26,311 nucleotides of DNA from a virus (IMGVR_UViG_3300017912_002925:1-26311); one strand, 5' to 3'; shown: positions 18 through 24,597, counted from the stretch's first letter. Translations and numbers: made by a program. The notes: generated by a model not told the origin, from the letters alone.

Positions 18-1718
18 TTGAGTGAAGAAATTGAAGCTCCAAAACGCAAACGGGGCCGTCCGAAGAAAGACCCAAATGCGCCCAAAGCCCGCTATAACCT
101 CTCTACTGCGGAAAAAGCGCGTAGAGCGACGCAAGCTAGCATAAACCGCTCAAAAAAAGAGGCGGCAAAGAAGCAAGCCGCCGCAAAGAAGCAAAATCAG
201 CGGGCGAACCAGCGTATTCGTGCCGCACAGAAAGTTGAAACAGCCTTAAAAGGCGAAAAGTCCCGTCTTGTAGACATGGGAGATGTTGACCAATTACCTT
301 CACACGTAAAGGAGCTAATTGGTGAATCTGATGTTGTATTTCAACCTAATGCGGGGCCTCAAGAAGAGTTCTTGTCCGCCCCAGAACAAGATGTATTGTA
401 CGGTGGAGCGGCTGGAGGCGGAAAAAGTTTCGCTCTGCTTGCTGATCCTCTCCGCTATTGTCACAACCCTAACCATCGGGGGCTTCTTCTACGCCGCACT
501 CTCGATGAGTTGACTGAACTCATATCAAAGTCGAAACAACTGTATCCCAAAGCGTTTCCCGGCGCCACATTCCGTGAAAGTAAGTCGACGTGGGTCTTTC
601 CATCCGGAGCTACTATATGGTTCTCATACCTCGACAAGGACAACGACGTCACTCGATATCAAGGGCAGGCATTCAATTGGATAGCTATCGATGAAATCAC
701 CCAGTATCCCACACCCTATGTATGGGAATACCTCCGGTCACGTCTACGGACTACAGACCCAGAACTCTCGGCAAACTTATCCATGCGTTGCACAGCAAAC
801 CCCGGCGGTGTCGGCGGCTGGTGGGTCAAAAAGATGTACATCGACCAAGGAGAGCCCGGTGAGCGTTACGTTCCATCCGACATGGAATCGGGAAAGCCAT
901 ACGTATACCCGGATGGACATGCAAAGGCAGGTCAACCGCTCTACTGGCGAAAGTTCGTCCCCGCAAGACTCACAGACAACCCGTACCTCATGCGGGACGG
1001 ACAATACGAGGCAATGCTCCTCTCACTACCAGAGGTTGAAAGAAAACGCCTGCTCGATGGTGACTGGGACGTCGCAGAAGGCTGTGCATTCCCAGAGTTT
1101 AACAAGCTCAAACACTGCGTTGAACCAATTGAATTACCGACAAATTGGCCGCGCATACGAGCCTGCGACTACGGCTACGCAAGCCCTTCGTGCGTACTAT
1201 GGGGCGCAATCGACTGGGACAACAACATATGGGTATATAGAGAATTATACGTAAAACACTTTACAGCAGAACAACTTGCCGCTAAAATATTAGAAATGGA
1301 GGAGTGGGACCCACAACCTCACTACACTGTTCTCGATAAATCGTGCTGGAATAGAACTGGATACGGCCCGTCTATTGCTGAAACCATGATGCGGATGGGA
1401 TGTCGTTGGGCACCCTCGGATAGCAACCGTATTGCAGGAAAGATGGAAGTACATCGCCGTTTAGGTGATAATGAGTTCACACAAGAACCTACGGTTAAAT
1501 TTTTCAACACATGCACCAATATAATAAAGCAGTTAGCGGGAATTCCTCTTTCAAAAACAAATTCTGAAGATGTTGATACAAAAGCAGAGGACCATGCGTA
1601 TGATGCGCTACGTTACATGCTAATGACTCGAACATCAGGGTATGTCTCCATACATAAGTCTTTGAACGATATTAAGAATAGCACGTTTCAACCACAAGAC
1701 GCAACCTTCGGATACTAA
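18..1718 (+). CDS. terL: Terminase large subunit with a basic N-terminal extension carrying an AT-hook-like motif
   Basis: Walker A YGGAAGGGKS, Walker B WIAIDE, motif III TANPGG, RNase H-like nuclease motifs RACDYG and EDHAYDALRY. The TTG start is uncertain because it lies at the window edge. Confidence 0.95.
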   Translation: MSEEIEAPKRKRGRPKKDPNAPKARYNLSTAEKARRATQASINRSKKEAAKKQAAAKKQNQRANQRIRAAQKVETALKGEKSRLVDMGDVDQLPSHVKELIGESDVVFQPNAGPQEEFLSAPEQDVLYGGAAGGGKSFALLADPLRYCHNPNHRGLLLRRTLDELTELISKSKQLYPKAFPGATFRESKSTWVFPSGATIWFSYLDKDNDVTRYQGQAFNWIAIDEITQYPTPYVWEYLRSRLRTTDPELSANLSMRCTANPGGVGGWWVKKMYIDQGEPGERYVPSDMESGKPYVYPDGHAKAGQPLYWRKFVPARLTDNPYLMRDGQYEAMLLSLPEVERKRLLDGDWDVAEGCAFPEFNKLKHCVEPIELPTNWPRIRACDYGYASPSCVLWGAIDWDNNIWVYRELYVKHFTAEQLAAKILEMEEWDPQPHYTVLDKSCWNRTGYGPSIAETMMRMGCRWAPSDSNRIAGKMEVHRRLGDNEFTQEPTVKFFNTCTNIIKQLAGIPLSKTNSEDVDTKAEDHAYDALRYMLMTRTSGYVSIHKSLNDIKNSTFQPQDATFGY

Positions 1719-3695
1719 ATGGCTCAACAACGCTTTACCCCTAAAGAACTACAGCAACTTACTCTCGGGCAATCTCTTGCGCTTAAAGCACAGCGTGAGA
1801 AAAATTTGGCAACAGAAATTGCATCTGTAATGGGGAAGCTCTCTGGTTTTGAGTATAATGGGCAAGAGATTCTCGATACCAAACTAGCCGAACTTGCTGA
1901 CGGAAAGGCTATTGCGGAGTGGAACGTATCGAGCCCGTACTCTGTTGGGCAAGTTGAACGTGAAAAGAAAGCAGGTCGTGTGTCTGTACAAGGCGGCGTT
2001 CTTGAAGTAAATAACCGATTGAACAACATTTTTACTGAGGCTGGTCTAAACGATAAGTCAGGACCGCAGTCTAGTATCAATAACAGACTTAAACAGCTTC
2101 TAAGTACAGAAGAGTGGACAGTATACACGGGTTATAAGTACTTTCGAGGACGAGCTAAAAAGAAATTTAACGAAAACGTACACGCGGGAACAAAAGCCGT
2201 ACTCGCTCGTTTAAATGCCCAAGGAAAAAAGGCTGAACGAGATTTCCTAGGTTTTAAATACTTCAGCGGTATTCGTATGTCGGATATGGGAGATTTTGAA
2301 GTCTCCGGCTACGATCCGGTTATGGGCACCTTGACTTTTATTGAAGGAAAATCCAAAGGAAAACCAACTGAAGAAAAGACTGTTATTTTGCGCCCTGCTT
2401 CAAGACCGTTTCTTGAGTCAGCAATTGCAGGGCGGGAAAAGGGAACGATCTTTGTAGATTACAAAAAGTTAACTTCACGTGTAAACGCTGAACTCAAAGA
2501 CGATCTGCCGACTGTTACCGGAAAAGATAGCGCCGGTAACCCGAAAGAAAAAAACTTTACTATGGGGGATTATCGGGACCTTGAGGAAGGGATTCTTTTA
2601 GAAGCAGGTCTCGACAAAGATGAACGTTTATTTGCGGCGGGCCGTGTTGGTTCAGACGAAGCATCTAAGTACATTGAAGATGAAATGTACTACGAAGTTG
2701 TCTCCCCCAAACTATTAAAAGCTGACGCAAAACTCGTTGCATATTCTGAGACTAAAAACGCTGTTCAGTACTTTAAAGAAATTGGGTTTGACGAGGGTCA
2801 ACTCCCTGATGAGTTGAAGTCAGTAATTATTGCAAAAGATTTAGTCACTAGCCCTCGCTATAAGAAGATGCTAGGTAAAGAGTTTTTGGACGGTTTGCCG
2901 ACACAAGGTGGCGGTCTTAAAGCTACCAACGAAGATGGGACAACATTTGTATTTAAATCAGACCCTGTGCTTGAGGCGGGATATACCGAATTTGCTGTCG
3001 GTGACTACGCGAAAAAAACCGTAGAAAATAAGGAAGCAGAAGCACTCGGTACGATTCGACTAGCTAAAATACTACAAAGTGATGAGTTTGCAGAAGCTAC
3101 AAAAGTACTAGATTCTAAAAAAACAACCACAACAAAACAAGAAACACGAGCACCCATTCCTCTCGAACTTGCTGACGATGATCTTGATGACGATATTGTA
3201 GAAGCTTTAAAGGAACTCGGAGATCGTTTTAAAAAAGTTCGACAAGCCACCCCTTCTCTGCCTCAAGGACTAGAAGCACTGGATATAGCTGTTGAAGCGG
3301 CTTCCACAAAAACAACTCCCGGTTCTGAAGAGACACAAATGGATAAACTCTTTAAATACGGAAGGCAGGGATATAAAGTTGGACGCGGCTTATACGGGCT
3401 ATACCAACTTCGTAAAGGAATTCAGCAACAGCTTGCCCCGTCAGAGGAGGGCCAGCCGAAGACACTATATGACTTCGGGAACACTCTTTACGATCAAGTT
3501 CAAGATGCTTTTTCGAGTCCAAAAAAGGACGAACCACAGCCTACGGTCCAAGGACCTTCTATGAGTCCAGTATACGACAAAACTTCTGAAGTTCCTGTTG
3601 ATACTAGACCACTTAATGAAAGACTAACTGAGTACCAACAATTTATGCGAGGTCTTCGAGAGAAGTCTCAAGATAAAGGAAATGAAATGCCATGA
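1719..3695 (+). CDS. 658-aa protein with a divergent tyrosine recombinase (integrase/Xer-like) catalytic domain at about aa 170-320 and a long charged C-terminal region
   Basis: FSGIRMSDM (R186), GTLTFIEGKSK (K211), KTVILRP, GTIF, FTMGDYRD (R286) and LLEAGLD...AAGR(309)...KY318 align with the box I, box II and Tyr motifs. The ATG directly follows the terL stop. Confidence 0.7.
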   Translation: MAQQRFTPKELQQLTLGQSLALKAQREKNLATEIASVMGKLSGFEYNGQEILDTKLAELADGKAIAEWNVSSPYSVGQVEREKKAGRVSVQGGVLEVNNRLNNIFTEAGLNDKSGPQSSINNRLKQLLSTEEWTVYTGYKYFRGRAKKKFNENVHAGTKAVLARLNAQGKKAERDFLGFKYFSGIRMSDMGDFEVSGYDPVMGTLTFIEGKSKGKPTEEKTVILRPASRPFLESAIAGREKGTIFVDYKKLTSRVNAELKDDLPTVTGKDSAGNPKEKNFTMGDYRDLEEGILLEAGLDKDERLFAAGRVGSDEASKYIEDEMYYEVVSPKLLKADAKLVAYSETKNAVQYFKEIGFDEGQLPDELKSVIIAKDLVTSPRYKKMLGKEFLDGLPTQGGGLKATNEDGTTFVFKSDPVLEAGYTEFAVGDYAKKTVENKEAEALGTIRLAKILQSDEFAEATKVLDSKKTTTTKQETRAPIPLELADDDLDDDIVEALKELGDRFKKVRQATPSLPQGLEALDIAVEAASTKTTPGSEETQMDKLFKYGRQGYKVGRGLYGLYQLRKGIQQQLAPSEEGQPKTLYDFGNTLYDQVQDAFSSPKKDEPQPTVQGPSMSPVYDKTSEVPVDTRPLNERLTEYQQFMRGLREKSQDKGNEMP

Positions 3696-3883
3696 AAAAT
3701 ATTATGGAAGCTGATACATACGGTATCGATTACAACTGCGGAGAAAACAACCTAGTTCGTGAATCTGCTGACTTTACAACAGAAGCAAACACAGAAGAGT
3801 TAATTGTTGACGCAGGTAGCGTTAATAAAGGACAGCTTGACGCTTCAATCTTAAATGCTGACAAAGAAAATCCTCTTTCTTAA
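3692..3883 (+). CDS. Small acidic hypothetical protein (63 aa)
   Basis: ATGA overlap with the upstream stop, AAAGGA upstream, and it fills the gap before the portal gene. Confidence 0.65.
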   Translation: MKNIMEADTYGIDYNCGENNLVRESADFTTEANTEELIVDAGSVNKGQLDASILNADKENPLS

Positions 3884-3899
3884 TAAAAGGTAACTTAGG

Positions 3900-5996
3900 A
3901 TGGCTGATGAGGGCTTCTTGCAAGCCCCGGATGACTCTCAGGTCGAATTTGTAGACGCTGAAGATAAAATGCCGGGTCTGGCCGGACACATTAGAGCTAA
4001 ATTTGACGATTCTGAAAATGGTCGTAGAACGTTTGAACAACGTTGGTTACAGGCGTATAAAAACTATCGTGGAGTTTACGATAGTACGACGCAGTACCGA
4101 GATTCAGAGCGCTCTAAAGTATTTATCAAAATAACAAAGACAAAAGTCTTAGCGGCTTACGGTCAGATTATTGATATTCTTTTTGCGAACAAAAAGTTTC
4201 CAATAGTTGTTGAGCCTAGCCCCGTTCCAGAAGGTATAGTTGAGTTTGCTCACGTAAAGGGACCCGGAGATGAAGTTCAAAGTCCATTTGGATTTCCCGG
4301 AGATGGCATGGATCTTGCTCCCGGAGAAACACAACTAAACTTCGGTAAGTACCAAGAGATGGCCGATCAATTAGCAGAAGGCCCATCTAAGCTCGGAGAA
4401 CCCCAGCTTGAACCAGCACGAGAAGCGGCAAATGCCCTTGAAAAGGTTATTCACGATCAGCTTTTAGATACTGATGCCGTAAACGTAATGCGGTACGCAG
4501 TCTTTGAGGCGTCTCTTCTTGGCACTGGTATTGTAAAGGGCCCATTTAATTTTTACGATAAAGTTCACCGATGGACTCGTGGCGAAAACGGAGAAAGAGA
4601 ATACACCCCCGAAGAAAAGATTGTACCTCGTTTAGAGCACGTATCTTTATGGGATTTTCATCCTGATCCCTCGGCAACAAGTATTGACGACTGTGAATAT
4701 GTTATTCAACGTCACCGCATGAATCGTCAGCAGTTGCGCTCTCTAATGAACCGCCCGTATTTTAACGCCGAAGCTATTGAAACAGCTATTGTAAAGGGAC
4801 CAAACTACGAAGACAAGTATTACGAAGATACAATTCGTGAAGATGATACTGAACCATACTATCAAGAAAACCGCTTTGAAGTCCTTGAGTATTGGGGCGT
4901 TTTAGATTCTAAGTTTGCTAATGAAGTAGGGCTCGATATTCCCGATGATTTGTCGCCCCTCGATCAAGTACAAGTAAATGTGTGGGTGTGCGGTTCAAAC
5001 GTATTACGTTGTGTTCTAAACCCATTTACACCCGCACGTCTTCCGTACTACGCTTTTCCATTTGAAATCAACCCTTACCAGATTTGGGGTGTTGGTGTAG
5101 CCGAAAACATGGAAGACGCACAGATGCTCATGAACGGTCACGTTCGTATGGCGATTGATAACCTAGCACTCGCAGGTAATCTCGTATTCGATGTAGACGA
5201 AGCATCACTTGTTCCCGGCCAGAACTTTGACATTTTTCCCGGAAAAGTGTTTAGACGTCAGTCGGGAGTTACCGGCACTGCAATTAACGGTCTGAAGTTT
5301 CCGAATACTGCGCCGGAAAATATACAGATGTATCAGATCTCACGTCAACTTGCAGACGAAGAGACAGGTATTCCATCAGTTATGCACGGGCAAACAGGCG
5401 TTACAGGAACTGGACGTACGTCGTCCGGCCTTTCAATGCTCCTATCACAAGGTAGCATGTCAATAAAGACGGTTGTTAAGAACATTGACGACTTTTTACT
5501 GAGGCCTCTTGGACTTGCGTATTTTCAGTGGAATATGCAATACAATGACAGTAGCCCTGACATTATCGGTGACCTTAGTATTAAGCCCCGTGGTACCGCC
5601 GCTGTCATGCAAAAAGAAGTACGCTCACAGAGGCTTACGACACTTCTTCAGACAGTTTCTAACCCGATGCTTGCCCCGTTTATCAAACTACCAAACTTGA
5701 TGAAGGAGCTAGCTATTTCACAAGATATTGACCCAGAAGAACTGGTTAATGATCTTGATGAAGCACAACTCTACGCAAAGGTACTACAAGGACTCGCAAA
5801 TGCTCAACAAGGAACAGGCCCAGAAGGTGGGCCCGTTGGTCAACCACCCGCAGGCATGGGAGGCCCTGACCAATTATCTGGCGGACCTTCACCAGTTGAC
5901 GCTTCGGGGACTGGTGACGGCACAATCGGAACGGGAAATGTTCCAGTTGCAGGGGAAGATGGTTTTACTGGAAACGCTCCTGAACCTCAAATCTAA
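3900..5996 (+). CDS. Portal protein (head-tail connector)
   Basis: 698 aa, located after the terminase. Podovirus portal-like motifs: LLGTGIVKGP, WDFHPDP, PYQIWGVGV, ADEETGIP, TGRTSSGLSML. G/P-rich C-terminal tail. Confidence 0.92.
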   Translation: MADEGFLQAPDDSQVEFVDAEDKMPGLAGHIRAKFDDSENGRRTFEQRWLQAYKNYRGVYDSTTQYRDSERSKVFIKITKTKVLAAYGQIIDILFANKKFPIVVEPSPVPEGIVEFAHVKGPGDEVQSPFGFPGDGMDLAPGETQLNFGKYQEMADQLAEGPSKLGEPQLEPAREAANALEKVIHDQLLDTDAVNVMRYAVFEASLLGTGIVKGPFNFYDKVHRWTRGENGEREYTPEEKIVPRLEHVSLWDFHPDPSATSIDDCEYVIQRHRMNRQQLRSLMNRPYFNAEAIETAIVKGPNYEDKYYEDTIREDDTEPYYQENRFEVLEYWGVLDSKFANEVGLDIPDDLSPLDQVQVNVWVCGSNVLRCVLNPFTPARLPYYAFPFEINPYQIWGVGVAENMEDAQMLMNGHVRMAIDNLALAGNLVFDVDEASLVPGQNFDIFPGKVFRRQSGVTGTAINGLKFPNTAPENIQMYQISRQLADEETGIPSVMHGQTGVTGTGRTSSGLSMLLSQGSMSIKTVVKNIDDFLLRPLGLAYFQWNMQYNDSSPDIIGDLSIKPRGTAAVMQKEVRSQRLTTLLQTVSNPMLAPFIKLPNLMKELAISQDIDPEELVNDLDEAQLYAKVLQGLANAQQGTGPEGGPVGQPPAGMGGPDQLSGGPSPVDASGTGDGTIGTGNVPVAGEDGFTGNAPEPQI

Positions 5997-6033: not shown

Positions 6034-7974
6034 ATGGGAAATTGGAATCAAGGCGGTGGAGGTGGCCGTGGAGGATCTGGTGCTGAAGTTGATGCTAATA
6101 TGGGGATTACTGGCAGAGGTGCCGATAGAAACGACGACGTAATGGACCAGTTAAATGAGGTCAGTAATGTCTTCGACCAAATGGATAAGATCTTAGATAC
6201 AGGAAATAATTTTAACCGTCCGGTTACAGTGCTAAACGCTGAAAATGAAATGAGAGGGTTTGATCCTAGAGGCGGTCGGTACAACGCAGATGATACAGCA
6301 TTTTTTGCAGGTGCCATAGGAGAATATGGGCTTGCGTCTCAGATTGCGCCGCCGGAACAGGACAATTCTTTTTTTGGAGGAATTGAACGTGGAGTTACTA
6401 AGGCGCTTAACGCAGTTCACGAACGTTTTGGCACGTCTATCAACAGAGAATACGCAATTCTTCCGTCCGAAAAATACATCGGAAAAATCACAGAAGACTA
6501 CGGGTTTACTGATTTTATCGGAAATGTCATCGGCACCGTAACTCCGGGCGGAGCAAGAGTAGATCGATACCGGTCGGAAGAGCTAACTAAAACCGGGCGT
6601 GGCACTAGGCAGTTTGGAGAGGCAAAAGCTTTTTACGGTTCAATTGATACGCGCTACGCGGTTACGCCTGAAAAAGAACAAGAGATGTTGGCCGAACAAC
6701 GTCGAGCGCAAGAAGAAAGAAGAAAATACGGGGGTGATCAACCCCCACGACCTACAGTAGCAACAAGTGTAACTGGCACTGTAACCCGACCGCGTTCTGC
6801 AATTTTGGGTGGTTTATTAGGTAATATGACAGATCCTCTGTATAACATAGCCGCACCATATACCAGTGATGCCCTAGACGCTGTCAATCCGTTTAGTTAC
6901 TTTGGTGGCGGAAGTACTACAAACGCATTTAATTTTGTAAAGGGGGGACCTGTACAAAAAGCTCAGATGGGCGGGGTTCAAGAAAGTATTGAAGGTCCTG
7001 TTGGATTTGTTGGCGGTCCCCCTGAACAAATGACAGAGGCGGAAACTGTTGCCGATGATGTTCCAGTTGAAGTCGCAGAAGGTAGTTATGTACTAAACGC
7101 GGCGGCTGTTGAATACATGGGAAGTGCTGATGTTAAAAAAATGATTCTTAGTGCTTTACAAGAGTTAAAAACACAAGGTGTTGATAAGGCGCAAAACATC
7201 GATGCAGTAGAACTAGATACGCAAGTTTCTTTGTTGGTATCAAAGGGTGAGGTTTTAATTCCACCAGCCGTTGCACAAGTTATCGGGTATGATCGTTTAG
7301 AAAAGATAAACAAACGCGGCTTGAAAGAGACAGAGAAACGAGTTCAAGAAAATGGTCAGAGTCCAGAGGCTGAAGCACTAGACCAACAACCTGCTAATCC
7401 TTCTGAAGGTATGAGCATGTCTGAAGGCGGTTTTACTGGCGTAGTAGACACAGTTGCTTCATTTGGCGCGGGACTCGTCGGTTTAGGTGATGCATATGCT
7501 ATTAAACAAGAAGCCGGTGAGTACGCAAAGCAGGCCGCTAAACTAGAAAACACAAACGCTTTAGAAAATAAATTTGATGCCATTCGCCACCTCGGTGGGA
7601 CGATGGCACTTTACAATAAATACCCCGAAATTGTAGCAAGTAGTTTACTCACAGTAAATGAGTTTTTAGGCGAAGGCGGAGCGTCTCAAAAAATGGACGA
7701 GACAAACAACGTCGTTGCACTAGAAGTGTACAGAAATATTCCTTTAGACAAGCGTTCTAAAATGTCGACTTTAGATTTTATGAAGTATGCAGAAACGTTT
7801 GTTGATCAGTACGAGCAAGCTGTAGAAGAAGGCAGGGACGTGCCCGAAAAATTTCGACCTGTATTGAGTTCACAGCCTAAAAAGAAAAGTACAAAGAAAG
7901 AGGTACAACTTTATATTATAGGTCCGGAAGGAACATGGGTACCTAACCCTAAACATCCGGACAATAAATCCTAG
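6034..7974 (+). CDS. Modular 646-aa putative internal virion/ejection protein with xxGG motifs, a 'DDVP...EGSYV/SKGEV' domain and a C-terminal DAxRH...MDxxNN domain
   Basis: Lies between portal and scaffold. Motifs FVKGG, AQMGG and MSEGG. ADDVPVEVAEGSYVLNAAAVE and VSKGEVLIP...GYDRLEKIN resemble a motif seen in tape-measure/ejection proteins. Confidence 0.6.
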   Translation: MGNWNQGGGGGRGGSGAEVDANMGITGRGADRNDDVMDQLNEVSNVFDQMDKILDTGNNFNRPVTVLNAENEMRGFDPRGGRYNADDTAFFAGAIGEYGLASQIAPPEQDNSFFGGIERGVTKALNAVHERFGTSINREYAILPSEKYIGKITEDYGFTDFIGNVIGTVTPGGARVDRYRSEELTKTGRGTRQFGEAKAFYGSIDTRYAVTPEKEQEMLAEQRRAQEERRKYGGDQPPRPTVATSVTGTVTRPRSAILGGLLGNMTDPLYNIAAPYTSDALDAVNPFSYFGGGSTTNAFNFVKGGPVQKAQMGGVQESIEGPVGFVGGPPEQMTEAETVADDVPVEVAEGSYVLNAAAVEYMGSADVKKMILSALQELKTQGVDKAQNIDAVELDTQVSLLVSKGEVLIPPAVAQVIGYDRLEKINKRGLKETEKRVQENGQSPEAEALDQQPANPSEGMSMSEGGFTGVVDTVASFGAGLVGLGDAYAIKQEAGEYAKQAAKLENTNALENKFDAIRHLGGTMALYNKYPEIVASSLLTVNEFLGEGGASQKMDETNNVVALEVYRNIPLDKRSKMSTLDFMKYAETFVDQYEQAVEEGRDVPEKFRPVLSSQPKKKSTKKEVQLYIIGPEGTWVPNPKHPDNKS

Positions 7975-8061: not shown

Positions 8062-8958
8062 ATGGCAAAACCAAAAGGGCATCGCGCCAACAAAGCAAAC
8101 GATTCTTTCGGAACGATCAATAACGATCAAATCTATAAAGGAAAATACCGAGAGGACGTTTACAAAGATGACGACGACGAAGTAGTAGAAGCGACGGACC
8201 CCTCACAAGAAGAAGAAGAGGCTACTCCCGAAACAAATGAATCTACTTCATTTGCAGAACCTGCAAAGGGATCAGATACCGACTATAAAAAACGGTATGA
8301 TGATCTTAAACGACACTATGACTCCAAACTCGAAGAATGGAAACAAGAGAAAGAACAGATTACTAATGCACAACAGATAGGAGCTAAAGAAGGCGTTCCA
8401 ATGGGTGACCTTCCAAAAACTCCCGAAGAACTTGCTGAGTTTAAAGAAAAATATCCGGATGTGTATCATGTTGTTGAAACAATCTCGACCATTCAAGCAG
8501 AGAACCGGCTAAAGGAACTGAAATCAGAGGTAGAAAGTTTAAAAAACCGCGAGCAAAAAGCTCAATCACAAGCGGCGTATCAAGAACTTTTAAATTTACA
8601 TCCTGATTTTCCAGAGCTTAAAGGTAGCACAGAATTTATATCATGGTTGGATGAACAGCCTGATAGTATAGCCGACGGCATATACAAAAATAATTCTGAT
8701 GTTAGATGGGCAAGTAGAGTCCTCGACTTATACAAAGCCGATACAGGTATTGTAAAGAAACGTCAAAAGAAGAGCGATGCTGATGCGGCCTTAGCCGTAA
8801 GCAAAGCCACAGCAAAAGACGTGGTTAAAGAAGCTTCTCCTGACAAAAAAATCTGGAAAGCATCTGAAATCGGTAAAATGAAGCCGTGGCAATTCGAGAA
8901 GCTTGAAGCTGAACTCGATGCCGCACGTGCTGAAGGCCGAATAGACTATACAACTTAA
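8062..8958 (+). CDS. Capsid scaffolding protein
   Basis: Immediately before the major capsid gene. Acidic N-terminus, coiled coil DYKKRYDDLKRHYD, HPDF motif, and a C-terminal helical motif WKASEIGKM...FEKLEAELDAARAEGRI. Strong RBS. Confidence 0.85.
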   Translation: MAKPKGHRANKANDSFGTINNDQIYKGKYREDVYKDDDDEVVEATDPSQEEEEATPETNESTSFAEPAKGSDTDYKKRYDDLKRHYDSKLEEWKQEKEQITNAQQIGAKEGVPMGDLPKTPEELAEFKEKYPDVYHVVETISTIQAENRLKELKSEVESLKNREQKAQSQAAYQELLNLHPDFPELKGSTEFISWLDEQPDSIADGIYKNNSDVRWASRVLDLYKADTGIVKKRQKKSDADAALAVSKATAKDVVKEASPDKKIWKASEIGKMKPWQFEKLEAELDAARAEGRIDYTT

Positions 8959-8991: not shown

Positions 8992-9936
8992 ATGGCTTTT
9001 AATAGCGCATCAGGTCATAACAACCTGCCTTCAGGGAACTTTACTCCTGAGATTTTTTCTCAGAAAGTCCTGAAGTTTTTCCGTCGTGCGTCGGTAGCCG
9101 AAGATATCACCAACACCGATTACGCTGGTGAAATCGAAAACTACGGCGACACAGTTCGTATCATCAAAGAACCTACAATCACTGTATCTTCTTACTCACG
9201 TGGTGCTGTGGTCAACCCACAAGACCTCGCTGACGATCAGATCACAATGGTTGTTGATCAAGCGAATGCTTTCGCGTTCAAGATTGACGACATCGAAGAG
9301 CGTCAGTCACACGTCAATTTTGAGGCGTTGGCTACATCTTCTGGTGCGTTCTCTTTGAAGCGTAAGTATGATGCTAGCGTTCTTCAAGCAATGGCCGATG
9401 GTGCTGGTAATACTAGCACATCATACGGTACAGCGGCATCCCCAATTAACATCTACACTGCGGCTACTAAAGGTGACAGTGCTGTTAATGCGATGCTTGC
9501 TATGGCACGTGATCTGGATGATGAATCTATTCCAGAAGAGAACCGCTGGTTCGTTGCACCTCCTGCTTTCTACGAAGCATTGTTTGGTGCCGGTGCTAAG
9601 TTGGCAGAAGTACAGGTAACTGGCGACGCAACTTCACCGCTACGTAACGGTCTTGTTATGCAAGGTAACATTGCTGGCTTTAACTGCTACAAGTCAACCG
9701 CGCTTAACAACTCTGGTACAGATGTTGTAACTGTAACCTCACAGGATACTACGAATGATTTCGTAATTCTTGCTGGTCACATGTCTTCTACAGCGACTGC
9801 ATCGCACATCGCTAAGACAGAGGTTGTCCGTTCAACTGAAACATTCAGCGACATCGTTCGTGGCTTGCACGTATTTGGCCGTAAGGTCCTACGTCCAGAA
9901 GCTCTCGTACAGGGTGTTGTTGCAACTGCCGCATAA
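8992..9936 (+). CDS. Major capsid protein (HK97 fold, P22-coat/T7-like)
   Basis: FTPEIFSQKVL, TNTDYAGEI, GDTVRI, IPEENRWFV and DIVRGLHVFGRKVLRPEAL motifs. RBS AAGGAAGG. Codon usage typical of a highly expressed gene. Confidence 0.93.
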   Translation: MAFNSASGHNNLPSGNFTPEIFSQKVLKFFRRASVAEDITNTDYAGEIENYGDTVRIIKEPTITVSSYSRGAVVNPQDLADDQITMVVDQANAFAFKIDDIEERQSHVNFEALATSSGAFSLKRKYDASVLQAMADGAGNTSTSYGTAASPINIYTAATKGDSAVNAMLAMARDLDDESIPEENRWFVAPPAFYEALFGAGAKLAEVQVTGDATSPLRNGLVMQGNIAGFNCYKSTALNNSGTDVVTVTSQDTTNDFVILAGHMSSTATASHIAKTEVVRSTETFSDIVRGLHVFGRKVLRPEALVQGVVATAA

Positions 9937-18451: not shown

Positions 18452-19843
18452 ATGGGAACTGGATACGTTCGTAACGATACTTCTAATAATATTGCGGATG
18501 GTAACGTCATTAATGCGTCAGACCTTGACGGGGAGTTCGACGCGGTCCAAGCGGCATTTAATGCTTCGACAGGCCACTCGCACGATGGAACAACAGGTGA
18601 AGGGCCACAGTTAACTACTGCTGGTCTTGCAGATGATGCTGTTACCGGGGCAAAAATTGACTCGACAACGACTGTGACGGCGGCGAGTTTTGTTGGACCG
18701 CTGACGGGAAATGCGAGTACAGCAACGACGCTACAAACAGCGCGAACTATCGCGGGGCAGTCTTTTGATGGTTCGGCTAATATATCGATAGCACCGACAG
18801 ACTTAACGAGTGTTACGTCTACAGCTAGTGAGATTAACATCCTTGATGGTGCGACTGTTACTACAGCAGAATTAAATAAACTAGACGGGTTTACGGGCGC
18901 TGTTGCTGATCTCAACTATGCAAAAGACCTAAGAGCAACAGGCGTTACAACCACAGAGTTTGATAAGCTGGACGGATTGACAGCGTCTACAGCAGAACTA
19001 AACATTCTTGATGGAGTAACAGCTACAGCGACAGAGATTAACAAGATTGACGGCTACACAGGTAGCACAGCCGAGCTAAACATTCTAGATGGTGTTACTG
19101 CTACCACTGCTGAACTCAATATTATGGATGGCGTAACAGCCACTACCGCAGAACTTAACTATGTTGACGGCGTAACATCCAATATTCAGACACAGTTAGA
19201 TGCTAAGGGTAACGTATCTGCCCTTTCTGATTTGGGTGTCACTGCGACTGCCGCTGAACTCAACAAGCTCGATAATGTAACTACGAGTGCTACTGAGTTC
19301 AATATTCTTGATGGCGATACTTCTGCTACTTCAACAACCCTTGCTGACGCAGATCGGGTGGTAGTTAACGACAGCGGTACGATGGTACAGGTTGCTATGA
19401 CAGATGTTAAGACGTACACCAACAGCGGTGTACTTCTATCTTCTGCAATTGGGTCTACCGTTCAAGCACACGATGCTGATACAGCAAAGACGGATGTTAC
19501 TCAAACCTTTTCAAAGGCACAGCGTGGTTCTACTCTAACTGACACAACAAACACAGGAAATGTTACTCTAGACTTTGCAACGTATCAGAACTTTGTACTG
19601 ACGCTTACAGGTAACGTTACGCTTGTAAACCCGACGACAGAGGCCGTAGGACAGTCTGGGTTTATTGTGTTAATTCAAGACGGCACAGGCAGTCGTACTT
19701 TGTCTTTAGGTACTGACTACGAAACAGCGGCGGGGGGTGGAATTACTTTGTCTACAGCCGCAAGCACAACTGATATTGTTCCATACATCGTTGCGGCATC
19801 AGGGCGTATTCTGCTTGGCGCACCTCAACTGGCGTTTGCATAA
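18452..19843 (+). CDS. Tail fibre protein with TAELNILDGV repeats
   Basis: N-terminal anchor (IADGNVINASDLDGEFDAV...GHSHDG), TARTIAGQSFDGSANI motif, repeats, and a C-terminal LIQDGTGSRTL domain. GGAGGT RBS. Confidence 0.85.
   Translation: MGTGYVRNDTSNNIADGNVINASDLDGEFDAVQAAFNASTGHSHDGTTGEGPQLTTAGLADDAVTGAKIDSTTTVTAASFVGPLTGNASTATTLQTARTIAGQSFDGSANISIAPTDLTSVTSTASEINILDGATVTTAELNKLDGFTGAVADLNYAKDLRATGVTTTEFDKLDGLTASTAELNILDGVTATATEINKIDGYTGSTAELNILDGVTATTAELNIMDGVTATTAELNYVDGVTSNIQTQLDAKGNVSALSDLGVTATAAELNKLDNVTTSATEFNILDGDTSATSTTLADADRVVVNDSGTMVQVAMTDVKTYTNSGVLLSSAIGSTVQAHDADTAKTDVTQTFSKAQRGSTLTDTTNTGNVTLDFATYQNFVLTLTGNVTLVNPTTEAVGQSGFIVLIQDGTGSRTLSLGTDYETAAGGGITLSTAASTTDIVPYIVAASGRILLGAPQLAFA
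18821..19315 (+). repeat. Degenerate repeats of about 13 aa (T-A-E-L-N-x-L-D-G-V-T-A-T)
   Basis: About ten copies are visible in the translation, with diverged synonymous codons. Confidence 0.85.
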
Positions 19844-22800
19844 TGTTTGATAATTCCCAGTTTTTCGGCGCAGGGGCGGATCCATTCTATCCGCACACTA
19901 TCAATGGCTCTCTTTTTATTGACGGTTCTAATTCTGCCAGCCTTTCTCGTGCGGCTGTTGCTGTTGACGATACCACAAAAGCGACATGGTCTTTTTGGTG
20001 GAAAAGGGCTAGTGGAATATATACAAACTTTTCTAGTGAGGGAGAGTTTTTCCTTCAAAACACTAACGGAACTAACCGTGGTTTTCGGCTCAGAACAAAC
20101 TCTTTAGGTGAAGGCACGTTAAGTCTGTACGTTAACCCAACGTCAGGTACTTCAGCTTACATAATAACTGATAGAGAGTTTAGGGACCAAGCGGGTTGGG
20201 TTCATGTTATATGGCATTGGGATAGTGCTAACGCTGTCGAATCTGAGCGTGTAAGGCTTTATGTTAATGGAACTAGAGTTACTGAATTTAGTCAAGAAAC
20301 TTATCCCCCATTAAATGACGCTCATGATTTTAATACTGGTTTTGGTGGTTGGAGAGTTGGGGCTCTCTCTAGCTACCAAGGAACAAGTGCGGGTAAGAGG
20401 GCATTTAGAGGGTACCTGACAGAGTTTCACTTTATGGACGGGTACAACTATGGCCCTGAATACTTTGGTGAAACAAAAAGTGGAGTTTGGGTTCCAATAG
20501 AAGTTACTGGCGTAACATATGGCACGGGCGGTTGGTACTTGCCTCTGACATCAAACGGCAATGACGCTAGCGGTAACGACAACCATTTTACTGAAAATAG
20601 TGTCGGTGCCCATGATTACAAAACAGACAGTCCAACAAATAACTTTTGCGTTTTAGATGCAAACAATTCTTATAACTTCCGCCTTTCGGAAGGAAACTTA
20701 AAGTTTGCCAATACAACTACACGCTGGGATGGCGCACTTGCTACTTTTGCTGTGCCCAAAACAGGAAAGTGGTACTGGGAAGTTTACATTAATGCAGGAA
20801 CTAACGTAGTTACAGGTCTAGCTAACGGCAGTTCAAATCTAATTAACGATACTGGGTATGATGAATACGAGAACTATTCCTATGGAATAAACCAGACAAG
20901 TGTTCGCTACGGCACAACAGTTATTTCTACCGAGTCTCCCCCAACTTCGTCTTCTGGGGATGTTTTGGGATGGTATGTTGATGATGGTGATGTGTATCTT
21001 TATAAAAATGGAACACAAATTGCGTCACCAACTTCTTGGACATCCAACATGAGCGCAGTGGATTACGATTACTTTCCGCAAATATTTGCGTATGGCAGTG
21101 GCACTGGCGCAACGTTCAATTTTGGACAAGACGGAACATTTGCAGGAGCAACAACTGCGGGAGGTAACTCAGATTCAGAGGGTATAGGGGACTTTAAATA
21201 CACGGTTCCGACAGGAGCAAAAGCATTATGTACCAGTAATTTGCCCGCTCCTGCTTTAGCAGACCCTTCAAACGAAGAAGAAGGTAGAGATTACTTTGAA
21301 ACATTTACATACACAGGTAACGGTGGAGCGTTACAGGTTGGTGATGTTACTAAGAAACCTGCTGATACAACTACGATCAGTAATTCTCTTCTTTTTGTTG
21401 ATGACAACAGTTCTTTTCTAAGCCGTACGCCCAGTACGGGCGGAAGTCAAACCACCTTTACTTTTAGTTGTTGGGTCAAAAGAGCGCAGACTAACAACCA
21501 AACATATCTATTTTCTGCTGGAGCTAGTGGTGCTACGACTGAATTGTTTTATATACAATTAAGAAACGATGCTAACAACCATATTCTTACAGTTGTTTGG
21601 CGAGATGGAAGCTCAACAACTAGGCAACTTACAGCAAGCCGTCAGTTTAAAAACCTAAGTCTTTGGGATCACTTTGTGGTTGCTGTTAAAACTGACGAGT
21701 CAACAGCCGCAGATAGGATAAAGGTTTATGTTAACGGCATACTAGAAACAAATTTCTCCTCCGATGACCGCTCTACGTTATCTGGCAGTTCTAGTTTGGC
21801 CGTAAACGCCGCATCAACGTTGCATACAATAGGTGCGTATAGCGTATCTTCTTCCGGTACTTACTTAGATGCGTATTTAGCGGAAGTTCATTTCATTGAC
21901 GGTACAGCCTACGAAGCGTCAGACTTTGGTAGTTTTGATGCAGGTGGAATCTGGATTCCTAAAGCAGTCTCTGGGCTTACTTATGGTACTAATGGTTTCC
22001 ATCTAGATTTTTCTAGTACAACCCCCGCTACCCAAAGCCTGTCCTTTACAGAATACTGGTCAGATCTTAGTAACTGGACAGGATCTGGAAGTGGTAGCAC
22101 TTCCCTTTCTAATGGTACGGTTTCTTTTGCTCCTACAAGTAGCAGTAGTTGGAATGGGCGTACTTTAACGCATACTTTATCCGCTGATTATCAGGATTTT
22201 GATATCACCTTCAACGATTGGACTATCACCAATGTTAGTAATGATTTAGTTCGGTATCAAATATGGCTAAGAGATTCAGACAACAACGTTGTTGCGGGAT
22301 ACTATTATAGTGATTCTCATGTGCAGACATCTGGTGGCACTGAAGACAATTTATGGGCTTACAATGGCAGTAATCAAATTGAGGACGTACTGTTAGAAGT
22401 AGGCACAGCGGCAAGAACGTATACGCTAGGTCCAGCAGACTTTAGGATTGCAAGAACGGGCAGAGTAGTTACGTTTGATATGCCCGGATTTACTAACATA
22501 TCTGCCATGTCTGCAAATATGAATCCAGTGGATAAGATTGTTTTAACAGTAGAGAGGCTTTCTGGCTACTCATACTCTCCGAATAGTTTAGGAACAATCT
22601 CCGCTACTGGCTCTCCTGTAATTACTACGATAGACGATCAAGAAGGGTCTAATGATTGGACCTTAAACAACATGAATTTTGCGGATTCTCAAACCACAGA
22701 TAGCCCTACAGATAATCATGCTGTCTTTAACTCAGATAGCGGAAACACCTTTACTGATGGAAACCTGTTTACTACCACAGGAACTTCCTCTAATCGCAGA

Positions 22801-24597
22801 TCCGTAGGTACGCTTGGTATGCGAACAGGAAAGCATTACTGGGAGGTAACATTAGGCTCAAGTGTAAGTTATGGCCCTGCAATAGGAATACATAGCAAAG
22901 CGATACCAGTTACAACTAATAGCTTTGTTTTAAATGATGGTGATCCCTCTGCGGGGTATTATAAGGACGGTAATAAATATGTTAACGGCACTGCATCAAG
23001 TTATGGCAGTGCAATGCAAGCGTTTGACACTGTGGGCGTTGCTTATGATGCGGATGCTAAGACTTTAGAGTTCTACTTAAACAATGTTTCTCAAGGGTCT
23101 TTTGGTGTTGGAAGTGAATTTTCAGATGTAGCTTATCCTGTTGTTGGAGACGGCTCTGGTTCGCAAGGCGTTTCTGTCTCCATAAATTTTGGTCAGCTTG
23201 GTTTTGTTTATACTCCACCAACTGGCTACACTGCTCTCTCTCAGAACAACCTATCGGTTGACGAGAACAACCTTGAATCCCCTGACTTTGTGTGGATTAA
23301 GAACCGTGATCAAGCAGATTCTCATCAGCTATACGACAGTGTTCGTGGTATACAAAAAGTTATTTTAAGTGATCCGGGTACAAATCCCTCTCAAGCAAAC
23401 GCACCTAATGGCTTGCTAGACTTTAATAAAAACGGTTTTACCATTGGTAATGACAATACGGTAAACACATTAGGGGAAGACTACGTTGCATGGAATTGGA
23501 AATCTTCTGGAACGGCGCAGTCGGCTACATATGCAGTAAAGGTTGTTTCTGATAGCGGGAATAAATACCGCTTTGACGACTTTGGAAGCAGTGCTGTAAC
23601 TTTAGAGTTATCTGAAGGTGGCACCTACACTTTTGACCAGTCTGATAGCTCAAACTCTGGACATCCTCTTCGTTTCTCAACAACATCTGATGGAACTCAT
23701 GGCGGCGGATCTGAGTACACCACGGGTGTTACAACGAACGGAACGCCCGGTTCAGCAGGGGCTTACACAAGAATTACCGTAGCCGCAGGCGCACCAACTC
23801 TTTACTACTATTGTAGCAGTCACTCTGGTATGGGTGGTCAGGCAAATACCCCGTTTACAAAGGGGTCTAGTAATTTTAAAGGGACGATACAGTCGAAAGT
23901 TCTTGCCAATACGGATAGTGGATTTAGTATTGTTGATTGGACGTATAGTACAACTAGCAACACTGTCGGGCACGGACTAAGCTCTGCGCCAGAAATGATA
24001 CTTGTAAAAGGGTACGATTCAAGCTCCAGTTTAGAATGGATTGTTTGGCACAAAGCCATTGGAACTATGGCCAATAGAAAGTACCTAAAGCTAAATGAAA
24101 ACATTACTACAGCCACAGGGACAAACGCCATATGGGGAGACTCAGATCCTACAACTACAGTGTTTGGGCAGGGATCAGGGTTAGCTTTTGATGGTGACGG
24201 ATGTATTGCCTACTGCTTCCACAGTGTCGATGGTTTCAGTAAATTCGGTAGTTTTGAAGGTAACGAAGAGGCTGGGCAATCCGACGGAGCCTTTGTATAC
24301 ACAGGGTTTGCTCCTGCTTTTGTTATGATTAAAAACTTCGACAGTGCGGCTAATTGGATTATTCTCGATAATAAGCGGCCTAATACAAGTGGGTCAGCAT
24401 TTAACCCTAAAGATACAAGTTCCGGTTTGTATCCTGACTCATCAAGCGCAGAAAGCACTGATGCTACATATCGGGGCGACTTTTTTTCAAATGGTTTTTC
24501 TGTTGCTTCAGGCTCAACAGCGTGGAACAACGGAAACAATACATTTCTTTTTATGGCATTTGGTGAGACACCATTCAAATACGGTAATGCGAGGTAA
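19843..24597 (+). CDS. Large tail/receptor-binding protein (1584 aa): two LamG+SPRY modules, a PDFVWIK-type repeat domain and a cupredoxin-like insert
   Basis: LamG motifs (TWSFWWKR, WVHVIW, RLYVNG; TFSCWVKR, KVYVNG), SPRY motifs (GKWYWEV, GKHYWEV), PDFVWIKNRD/PEMILVK/PAFVMIK repeats, and YYYCSSHSGMGG. Confidence 0.85.
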   Translation: MFDNSQFFGAGADPFYPHTINGSLFIDGSNSASLSRAAVAVDDTTKATWSFWWKRASGIYTNFSSEGEFFLQNTNGTNRGFRLRTNSLGEGTLSLYVNPTSGTSAYIITDREFRDQAGWVHVIWHWDSANAVESERVRLYVNGTRVTEFSQETYPPLNDAHDFNTGFGGWRVGALSSYQGTSAGKRAFRGYLTEFHFMDGYNYGPEYFGETKSGVWVPIEVTGVTYGTGGWYLPLTSNGNDASGNDNHFTENSVGAHDYKTDSPTNNFCVLDANNSYNFRLSEGNLKFANTTTRWDGALATFAVPKTGKWYWEVYINAGTNVVTGLANGSSNLINDTGYDEYENYSYGINQTSVRYGTTVISTESPPTSSSGDVLGWYVDDGDVYLYKNGTQIASPTSWTSNMSAVDYDYFPQIFAYGSGTGATFNFGQDGTFAGATTAGGNSDSEGIGDFKYTVPTGAKALCTSNLPAPALADPSNEEEGRDYFETFTYTGNGGALQVGDVTKKPADTTTISNSLLFVDDNSSFLSRTPSTGGSQTTFTFSCWVKRAQTNNQTYLFSAGASGATTELFYIQLRNDANNHILTVVWRDGSSTTRQLTASRQFKNLSLWDHFVVAVKTDESTAADRIKVYVNGILETNFSSDDRSTLSGSSSLAVNAASTLHTIGAYSVSSSGTYLDAYLAEVHFIDGTAYEASDFGSFDAGGIWIPKAVSGLTYGTNGFHLDFSSTTPATQSLSFTEYWSDLSNWTGSGSGSTSLSNGTVSFAPTSSSSWNGRTLTHTLSADYQDFDITFNDWTITNVSNDLVRYQIWLRDSDNNVVAGYYYSDSHVQTSGGTEDNLWAYNGSNQIEDVLLEVGTAARTYTLGPADFRIARTGRVVTFDMPGFTNISAMSANMNPVDKIVLTVERLSGYSYSPNSLGTISATGSPVITTIDDQEGSNDWTLNNMNFADSQTTDSPTDNHAVFNSDSGNTFTDGNLFTTTGTSSNRRSVGTLGMRTGKHYWEVTLGSSVSYGPAIGIHSKAIPVTTNSFVLNDGDPSAGYYKDGNKYVNGTASSYGSAMQAFDTVGVAYDADAKTLEFYLNNVSQGSFGVGSEFSDVAYPVVGDGSGSQGVSVSINFGQLGFVYTPPTGYTALSQNNLSVDENNLESPDFVWIKNRDQADSHQLYDSVRGIQKVILSDPGTNPSQANAPNGLLDFNKNGFTIGNDNTVNTLGEDYVAWNWKSSGTAQSATYAVKVVSDSGNKYRFDDFGSSAVTLELSEGGTYTFDQSDSSNSGHPLRFSTTSDGTHGGGSEYTTGVTTNGTPGSAGAYTRITVAAGAPTLYYYCSSHSGMGGQANTPFTKGSSNFKGTIQSKVLANTDSGFSIVDWTYSTTSNTVGHGLSSAPEMILVKGYDSSSSLEWIVWHKAIGTMANRKYLKLNENITTATGTNAIWGDSDPTTTVFGQGSGLAFDGDGCIAYCFHSVDGFSKFGSFEGNEEAGQSDGAFVYTGFAPAFVMIKNFDSAANWIILDNKRPNTSGSAFNPKDTSSGLYPDSSSAESTDATYRGDFFSNGFSVASGSTAWNNGNNTFLFMAFGETPFKYGNAR

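Follow-up and report, generated by a model that had tools for sequence, protein, structure and literature searches.

A gene situated between the terminase large subunit gene (terL) and the portal gene of a large group of marine, HMO-2011-like podophages was found to be exchanged between phages as an ORF-precise cassette, unrelated to terL kinship. Its product is identified, on the basis of sequence profiles and a predicted structure, as a tyrosine recombinase composed of a core-binding and a catalytic domain. The wholesale allele exchange of a core gene is the main feature which lay beyond the sight of the initial annotation of this DNA. The window analyzed here is the complete 26,311-nt stretch of the virus IMGVR_UViG_3300017912_002925:1-26311, and all coordinates are given as window positions except where another locus is named. 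It represents the structural arm of a podophage and possesses lysozyme and tail genes along with the features collected in Table 1. The slot gene begins on the base after the terL stop (TAA-ATG), as the initial annotation had stated, and shows a 4-nt overlap with the next gene. The same annotation had placed it between terminase and portal; this order is conserved, but it is the gene for a 63-aa protein, not the portal gene, which comes directly next.

Table 1. Positions of the genes, predicted domains and catalytic residues discussed in the text.
Feature	Position	Strand	Remarks
Terminase large subunit, terL	18..1718	+	Pfam PF03237, PHROG 979; stop codon is the left cassette border
Slot gene, predicted tyrosine recombinase, 658 aa	1719..3695	+	Cys-free, long variable tail; from profile, alignment, model and fold match
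Predicted core-binding (SAM-like) domain, aa ~9-141	1743..2141	+	Matches integrase core-binding domains, e.g. 3lys (Z 7.2, rmsd 3.2, 95 aligned)
Predicted catalytic domain, aa ~146-330	2154..2708	+	3nkh (Z 10.7, rmsd 3.0, 151 aligned)
R186	2274-2276	+	Catalytic Arg
K211	2349-2351	+	Catalytic Lys
G283		+	At the HxxR His site, within G283-D-Y-R286
R286	2574-2576	+	Second catalytic Arg
R309	2643-2645	+	His/Trp site, within G308-R309
Y318	2670-2672	+	Tyr nucleophile
Folded helical extension, aa ~322-400	2682..2918	+	pLDDT ~90; subfamily-conserved, Q350 and G356 in 27/30
Variable low-confidence tail, aa ~401-658	2919..3692	+	pLDDT mostly <50; exchanged partly apart from core
63-aa conserved gene	3692..3883	+	Right cassette border; tracks phage lineage, not allele
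Portal	3900..5996	+	44-51% identity to HMO-2011-type portals
Variable Cys-free protein after portal	6034..7974	+	Likely internal virion protein; outside cassette
Likely scaffold	8062-8958	+	Label from position; PHROG 13678 (unknown function)
Major capsid protein	8992-9936	+	PHROG 267

The phage of the window is HMO-2011-like. Two CXXCXGXG repeats in the DNA polymerase mark the HMO-2011-type phages (available part of PMC9038755), and such a polymerase was found in all five near-complete relatives, the window itself being without a polymerase gene. The polymerase forms one 685-aa ORF in G001, two ORFs with the exonuclease and polymerase parts in G006, and a short ORF of 516-522 aa in G007-G009; a programmed frameshift or a split gene is possible. 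The available part of PMC9038755 counts HMO-2011-type phages among the most abundant marine phages and describes subgroups IV-X as having no identifiable lysogeny-related gene. The papers on CRP-822 and CRP-810 concern other phage groups. All carriers of the slot gene showed terL identity of at least 60%. The gene is absent between terL and portal in four of four cultured HMO-2011-type relatives and in 6 more distant contigs (terL identity 45-58%), so its function is no general need. In tblastn searches neither the window protein nor any of five other family members matched one of 50,697 phage records, and thus no cultured carrier was detected.

The window protein alone matched no recombinase in Pfam or PHROG. 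A profile was made from seven relatives with 48-83% identity, and 34 representatives were found among 1.84 billion proteins. Of the 40 proteins then available, 4 near-duplicates, 5 fragments and one which matched in the tail only were set aside, and the remaining 30, which share 16-68% identity with the query, were aligned. Among these 30 relatives 17 touched the family PF00589 at E <=0.1, with a best value of 1.5e-5. A first small profile matched nothing in the PDB, and a later profile matched IntI4 (4.3e-5) and XerA (1.1e-4). In the set of loci picked by terL alone, described below, 34 of 69 proteins touched PF00589 at E <=0.05 and a single one passed the Pfam cut-off; standard annotation mostly misses the recombinase which this whole HMO-2011-like clade carries in its head operon.

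A first model from 8 sequences was poor (pLDDT 52.7) and was replaced by a model of aa 1-420 from 36 sequences (pLDDT 87.5, pTM 0.74). Compared with 48,161 chains, its best 12 rows were all tyrosine recombinases (Z 12.3-9.6). The values were Z 12.3 for Brujita Int (5vfz; rmsd 13.1, 262 aligned), Z 12.1 for Tn1549 Int (6emy; rmsd 4.7, 250 aligned), Z 10.9 for both XerA (4a8e) and lambda Int (1z1b), and Z 10.7 for the catalytic domain of an S. aureus integrase (rmsd 3.0, 151 aligned). Among the best 50 viral models each named row was an integrase or a tyrosine recombinase, with the Mx8 integrase in row 48; no match named VLF-1 was present among these 50 or among the PDB-chain matches, some rows of these lists carrying no name. 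Search of the ESM Atlas gave two unnamed viral clusters at 0.93 and integrases at 0.89, which is a lead only. The Z values are moderate, yet they agree with the sequence evidence for a tyrosine recombinase.

The predicted structure possesses the integrase catalytic fold, and the options of a topoisomerase or a telomere resolvase raised in the initial annotation fit it more poorly (Z 8.1 and 6.3 vs 12.3-10 for integrases). Topoisomerase IB (2b9s, 2h7f) and the protelomerases (TelA 4f43, TelK 2v6e) have a catalytic set that also lacks the first His, and share the catalytic fold with lower scores (Z 8.1-5.6): topoisomerase IB gave Z 8.1 with rmsd 3.5 over 147 aligned residues, and the protelomerases gave Z 6.3-5.6. 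Unlike them, the slot protein is predicted to have an integrase-type N-terminal domain, the topoisomerase IB chains aligning from aa 145 on only. In contrast to what would be expected for a protelomerase, no long palindrome marks the 5 near-complete genomes in a scan for perfect arms. No arm-binding domain precedes the core-binding domain. With the simple tyrosine recombinases and integrases (Brujita Int, Tn1549 Int, XerA, lambda Int, Cre 1kbu; PF00589) the protein has in common the core-binding and catalytic domains, box I, the R-K-R-Y residues and their spacings. It differs from them in lacking the HxxR His (76/76), in an Arg at the His/Trp site (41/74), in a folded extension, a tail of about 250 aa and the absence of Cys, and in its location in the late head operon with no att site found. 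About 340 extra charged residues had been reported at the C-terminal end. Extra residues are present there, but they do not form one tail, as aa ~322-400 are predicted to fold and aa ~400-658 are variable; nor is this part unusually charged (31% after aa 300 vs 29% before). The tail is likely the part which would load the protein into the capsid.

The residues pointed out in the initial annotation (R186, K211, G283-D-Y-R286, G308-R309 and Y318) were confirmed in the translation, and the XerD set used for comparison (R148, K172, H244, R247, H270, Y279) was confirmed on the E. coli K-12 gene. With this numbering, the reported spacings (+23, +9, and 97 vs 96) are correct. Both Arg, the Lys and the Tyr, reported as retained in the window protein, are kept in 29-30 of the 30 aligned relatives down to 16% identity. 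R186 is present in 29 (the exception is a fragment), K211, R286, E290, R309 and Y318 are present in all 30, and position 283 is free. Neither of the outcomes which the initial annotation had named as refuting, a structure lacking the integrase catalytic fold or homologs not conserving R186, R286 and Y318, was observed. In a wide set of 69 ORFs and 10 reference proteins, the first Arg was found in 78 of 79, the second Arg in 76 and the Tyr in 74, the misses being partial contigs or sequences cut by a 470-aa trim. The replacement of both His positions, by Gly and Arg, holds for the window allele. The HxxR His occurs in none of 76 slot proteins, and the His/Trp site in 74 slot proteins is occupied by Arg in 41 and by His in 33 (29 in the column, 4 one column off), which indicates that this is a true catalytic position at which subfamilies differ, Arg309 being one of the alternatives. 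The HxxR His is also missing from 4 of 15 ordinary recombinases, and the annotated integrases of HMO-2011 (L174) and CRP-207 (L173) have Met at this site. Since these integrases lack the HxxR His and 33/74 slot proteins keep the second His, the replacements count for little, and what is unusual about this system is not the loss of the His residues.

The position of the gene was followed in two sets of loci. In 71 loci picked by the gene itself, terL was directly upstream in 66, four had no upstream sequence and one, L058, showed other sequence there; the portal was downstream in 56 of the 56 loci reaching far enough. The ORF of L058 (66-2666) opens with about 225 charged residues which have no relation to terL and continue in frame into the recombinase; this is either an N-terminal fusion or a chimeric contig. 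Among the 71, L059 is the only frameshifted copy. To avoid bias, a second set was picked by terL alone, taking the best 80 loci (71-99% identity) from 14 of 64 parts of the viral collection. Sequence past terL was available in 76, and in every one of them an ORF begins at the terL stop or no more than a few bases away, its start codon abutting or overlapping the stop. Complete ORFs numbered 61 (533-759 aa), and the portal was found 1.87-2.53 kb on in all 57 loci that reach it. The synteny of terL and portal around the slot, which the initial annotation had suggested checking in homologs, is conserved in both sets. The 69 distinct ORFs of at least 300 aa together with 10 references formed one cluster at E <1e-10 and 8 at 1e-30, and judged by this sequence clustering the slot ORFs make up a single family which divides into about 8 deep subfamilies. 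Five of five near-complete genomes have the gene in single copy, and no second PF00589 match was found in 10 records searched. Public contigs from three of four runs bridge terL and the gene or the gene and portal, so a chimeric assembly is not the source of this gene order. In four of four runs the slot gene had a lower summed contig depth than terL and portal, a measure which cannot rank genes. Promoter-like sites were no commoner than in shuffles (3 vs 4.7), which together with the abutting or overlapping start codon supports a place in the late operon.

The small neighbour of 63-75 aa shows a conserved RE-x-x-x-F motif in 56 of 57 loci, and the 63-aa version belongs to no Pfam or PHROG family. 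It is possibly a small head protein. It was near-identical in locus pairs with unrelated slot alleles; as it tracks lineage and not allele, it is no allele-specific immunity protein.

The exchange was analyzed in 58 distinct complete loci, giving 1,653 non-independent pairs, in which core identity was taken as the best local match over query length and kinship was judged by pairwise identity. Identity of terL and identity of the core were hardly correlated (Spearman 0.04). Among 283 pairs with terL at least 90% identical, cores were below 25% identity in 233 and at least 80% identical in 18, and three pairs (L112/L116, L130/L131 and L148/L149) have an identical terL stretch followed by non-alignable cores. 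Nine relatives which have a different allele were compared with the window at the nucleotide level; in all nine the likeness is lost at 1721-1730, at the start codon, and returns at 3675-3953, within the small gene or portal. The cassette carries no flanking non-coding DNA. Core exchange independent of terL speaks against a fixed partnership with the motor. Tails are exchanged partly on their own: in 5 pairs a shared tail is joined to unrelated cores, in 25 a shared core is joined to unrelated tails, and one tail is common to P0003/P0005, P0009 and P0013 despite their different cores. Tails show a weak tendency to track terL (0.19). Purifying selection acts on the core within subfamilies, with dN/dS of 0.05-0.10 in 7 of 10 pairs, 0.32 in one and saturation in two, against 0.02-0.05 for terL. 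Between the window and L006, which are 97% identical overall, 53 amino-acid changes were counted, mostly in the catalytic domain and crowded in window 2319-2828; a Gly to Arg change at the HxxR His site is among them, and dN/dS for aa 1-400 is 0.32.

The composition of the slot protein is virion-like. Cysteine is absent from 68 of 68 full-length slot proteins. For comparison, 15 ordinary recombinases were taken from E. coli K-12, HMO-2011 and CRP-207; 14 of them contain it (0.85% overall), XerD being the exception. In five genomes the other Cys-free proteins were the protein at the scaffold position and three large proteins at the end of the structural arm, and terL, primase, helicase, polymerase and RNR contain 4-13 Cys. 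The nozzle, the adaptor and one fibre of the window are Cys-free as well. Absence of cysteine has been linked to ejected proteins; a literature search found no paper making this link. As external virion proteins are also Cys-free, the absence points to the virion and not to ejection specifically. Of 58 proteins, 32 terminate in a short C-terminal Phe motif (<=3 in shuffles), the motif having been chosen after the data were seen. A GG motif ends 10 of 58 slot proteins and occurs in the post-portal protein of 4/5 genomes; it is given little weight because non-virion enzymes also have it. The slot protein of the window itself is without these C-terminal motifs. Membrane-like helices, a typical trait of ejection proteins that form channels, were in no excess in the tails (6 of 68 reach hydropathy 1.6, shuffles 1-11).

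As no DNA beyond the ORF travels with the cassette, any self site specific to an allele would be confined to the ORF itself. Perfect inverted repeats numbered 5 in 108 kb of slot genes, 0 in 96 kb of terL and 2 in 87 kb of portal, giving no in-gene site. The tRNA T-arm motif was seen twice in slot genes and once each in terL and portal, and an Rfam scan found nothing credible in the slot genes. Windows of low synonymous change were not significant in 7/7 allele groups (lowest p 0.07). A scan of the 5 near-complete genomes for palindromes with perfect arms of at least 11 bp and a spacer of at most 10 gave one repeat with 12-bp arms, and the window has no perfect palindrome with arms of at least 9 bp. 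The AT-rich perfect inverted repeat at G001 54471-54501 has 12-bp arms and a 7-bp spacer and is situated about 700 bp from the contig end. Search with terL patterns found no clade member among 185,579 species genomes, and capsid patterns gave 11 loci, of which 10 were outside the clade (43-57% capsid identity) and one was a short contig. No repressor or excisionase match was present among the 34 G006 proteins scanned. These negative results on sites and prophages have modest power. Two readings are compatible with them: the enzyme acts on DNA of the phage itself with relaxed specificity, or its target is not in the phage. The lack of flanking DNA together with the lack of an in-gene site likewise favors a relaxed or non-self target.

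Among the options listed in the initial annotation, delivery by the virion appears to have the most indirect support. We consider it somewhat probable that these proteins are injected polymorphic recombinases of tailed phages, with at least 8 deep core alleles and a separately swapped loading tail, which seal the phage genome or strike host or rival DNA at entry. A more specific version, which we put forward tentatively as plausible but short of probable, is an enzyme loaded into the virion and ejected from it, which joins the ends of the incoming genome or caps them and owes its diversity to host defence. The recombinase would be made late, together with the terminase; its tail would bring it into the head, and it would leave the head along with the DNA. 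Tyr318 would then cut near the incoming genome ends and join them or cap them covalently by phosphotyrosine chemistry, and host defences may drive allele turnover as for other ejected proteins. In their available parts, PMC8954989 describes fast divergence as typical of ejected proteins and PMC3909814 reports variable islands in marine phages which include genes for internal virion proteins and terminases. This proposal is grounded on the fold and the conserved residues of the protein, on the fixed position and single copy of its gene, on purifying selection, on exchange as a cassette and on virion-like composition; own ends as the substrate, relaxed sequence specificity and defence-driven allele turnover are its least supported parts. 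It also has to face that a housekeeping role in end-joining alone does not explain 8 deep and freely swapped subfamilies.

That polymorphism is explained better if the virion-delivered enzyme acts on non-self DNA, each allele recognising a long site of the host chromosome or of a rival phage in the same cell, which it would cut, trap or recombine while frequency-dependent selection keeps the alleles. Identical terL stretches with non-alignable cores, the absence of a self site travelling with the cassette and the 53 changes from the 97%-identical relative, mostly catalytic, agree with such attack. It lacks a target to name in host or rival phage and an allele-linked immunity gene (the 63-aa neighbour tracks lineage), and dN/dS near 0.1 within subfamilies also counts against it, so that it appears unlikely on present evidence. 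Rather improbable, too, is a packaging helper in the producer cell or on the prohead which resolves branches or concatemers or relaxes DNA during packaging. Topoisomerase IB has the same R-K-R-H-Y set without the first His. The terL-portal position in 56/56 gene-picked and 57/57 terL-picked loci reaching portal and the translational coupling to terL suit a helper, and baculovirus VLF-1, a tyrosine recombinase, has such a role according to the available parts of PMC11654684 and PMC3649998. The same sources describe VLF-1 of baculovirus and bracovirus as recruited into virion assembly and packaging, a functional precedent likened by role, not homology: it belongs to eukaryotic enveloped viruses and is a conserved core gene, not a polymorphic cassette. 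Against a helper stand the exchange of cores independent of terL, the packaging of relatives without the slot gene, the endonuclease VII-type and Holliday-junction-resolvase-type nucleases encoded in the clade (G006), and the polymorphism, which a housekeeping role does not predict.

An ordinary lysogeny integrase had already been doubted in the initial annotation, and its slot in the late head operon bears this out. A relocated integrase, possibly virion-delivered, could have attP inside its own gene so that allele swaps change the host target site; in Myxococcus phage Mx8, attP lies inside the integrase gene. The closest folds are integrases, with that of Mx8 among the best 50 viral models, the slot protein is the only recombinase in these genomes (10 records searched), and loss of the HxxR His is common to HMO-2011-type integrases. 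We nevertheless regard this origin as quite unlikely, given the late-operon position, no tRNA fragment, inverted-repeat excess or low-synonymous-change window (7/7 groups), no clade member in 185,579 species genomes by terL patterns, and no repressor or excisionase match among 34 G006 proteins. The early integrase of HMO-2011-type phages (subgroups I and III, available part of PMC9038755) occurs in the same phage group and is also without the HxxR His, but it has ~300 aa, lies upstream of primase and contains Cys. The HMO-2011 integrase was a poor match to the slot profile (E 0.022), behind the prophage integrases of E. coli; the slot gene is therefore no relocated form of this integrase gene. 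Two further explanations are very improbable. A catalytically dead DNA-binding protein with a recombinase fold, like the SPbeta repressor SroF/MrpR, would agree with the change of both His sites in the window allele and with SroF (Z 9.1) and MrpR (Z 7.0) among the fold matches. SroF is a phage recombinase fold which lost the catalytic Tyr and became a repressor (available part of bioRxiv 10.1101/2025.11.27.690993); here the Tyr is kept in 74/79 and the Arg in 78/79 and 76/79, the misses being cut-off sequences. A selfish homing gene converting the slot of co-infecting relatives would account for ORF-precise replacement between conserved flanks and for independence from terL kinship. Homing genes are usually patchy and decayed, and here 76/76 loci have no empty slot, there is almost no decay, and selection is purifying.

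The preferred reading of a virion-delivered recombinase has parallels in known phage systems. P1 Cre circularises the injected genome by the same chemistry and in the same job proposed for the slot protein, but it is made after entry and acts at a fixed lox site. The T4 internal proteins are variable injected anti-restriction cassettes with a shared capsid-targeting peptide; the proposed logic of swappable injected cargo is the same, but they are small and are not recombinases. In the open-licence literature searched, no report was found of a recombinase in the terL-portal slot or of a virion-packed role for one in tailed phages. The system is real and conserved, and it is strange in that members of a known enzyme family occupy a place, and show an exchange pattern, for which no description was found. 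If the protein is virion-borne, the VLF-1 solution would have arisen again in tailed phages, plus an arms-race polymorphism which VLF-1 lacks, and it would offer a testable route to genome protection or processing at entry. If an injected polymorphic recombinase is true, it would be a new phage effector class and a large natural library of recombinase specificities. The family would also supply many divergent recombinases, about half of them with Arg replacing the general-acid-side His, and would warn that 'integrase' need not mean 'temperate'.

The window also possesses a 1584-aa tail or structural protein (19843-24597) with repeated SPRY and DUF7483 domains. In the post-portal protein (window 6034-7974; L009 5618-8854; L006 12593-14923) the first ~470 aa are kept and the C-terminal cargo is swapped, giving versions of 646, 776, 965 and 1078 aa. 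Short x-x-G-G-x-V motifs recur between its modules, and an HExxH-type motif is present in the L009 version, whose C-terminus resembles a beta-barrel by eye. It looks like a second polymorphic internal virion protein.
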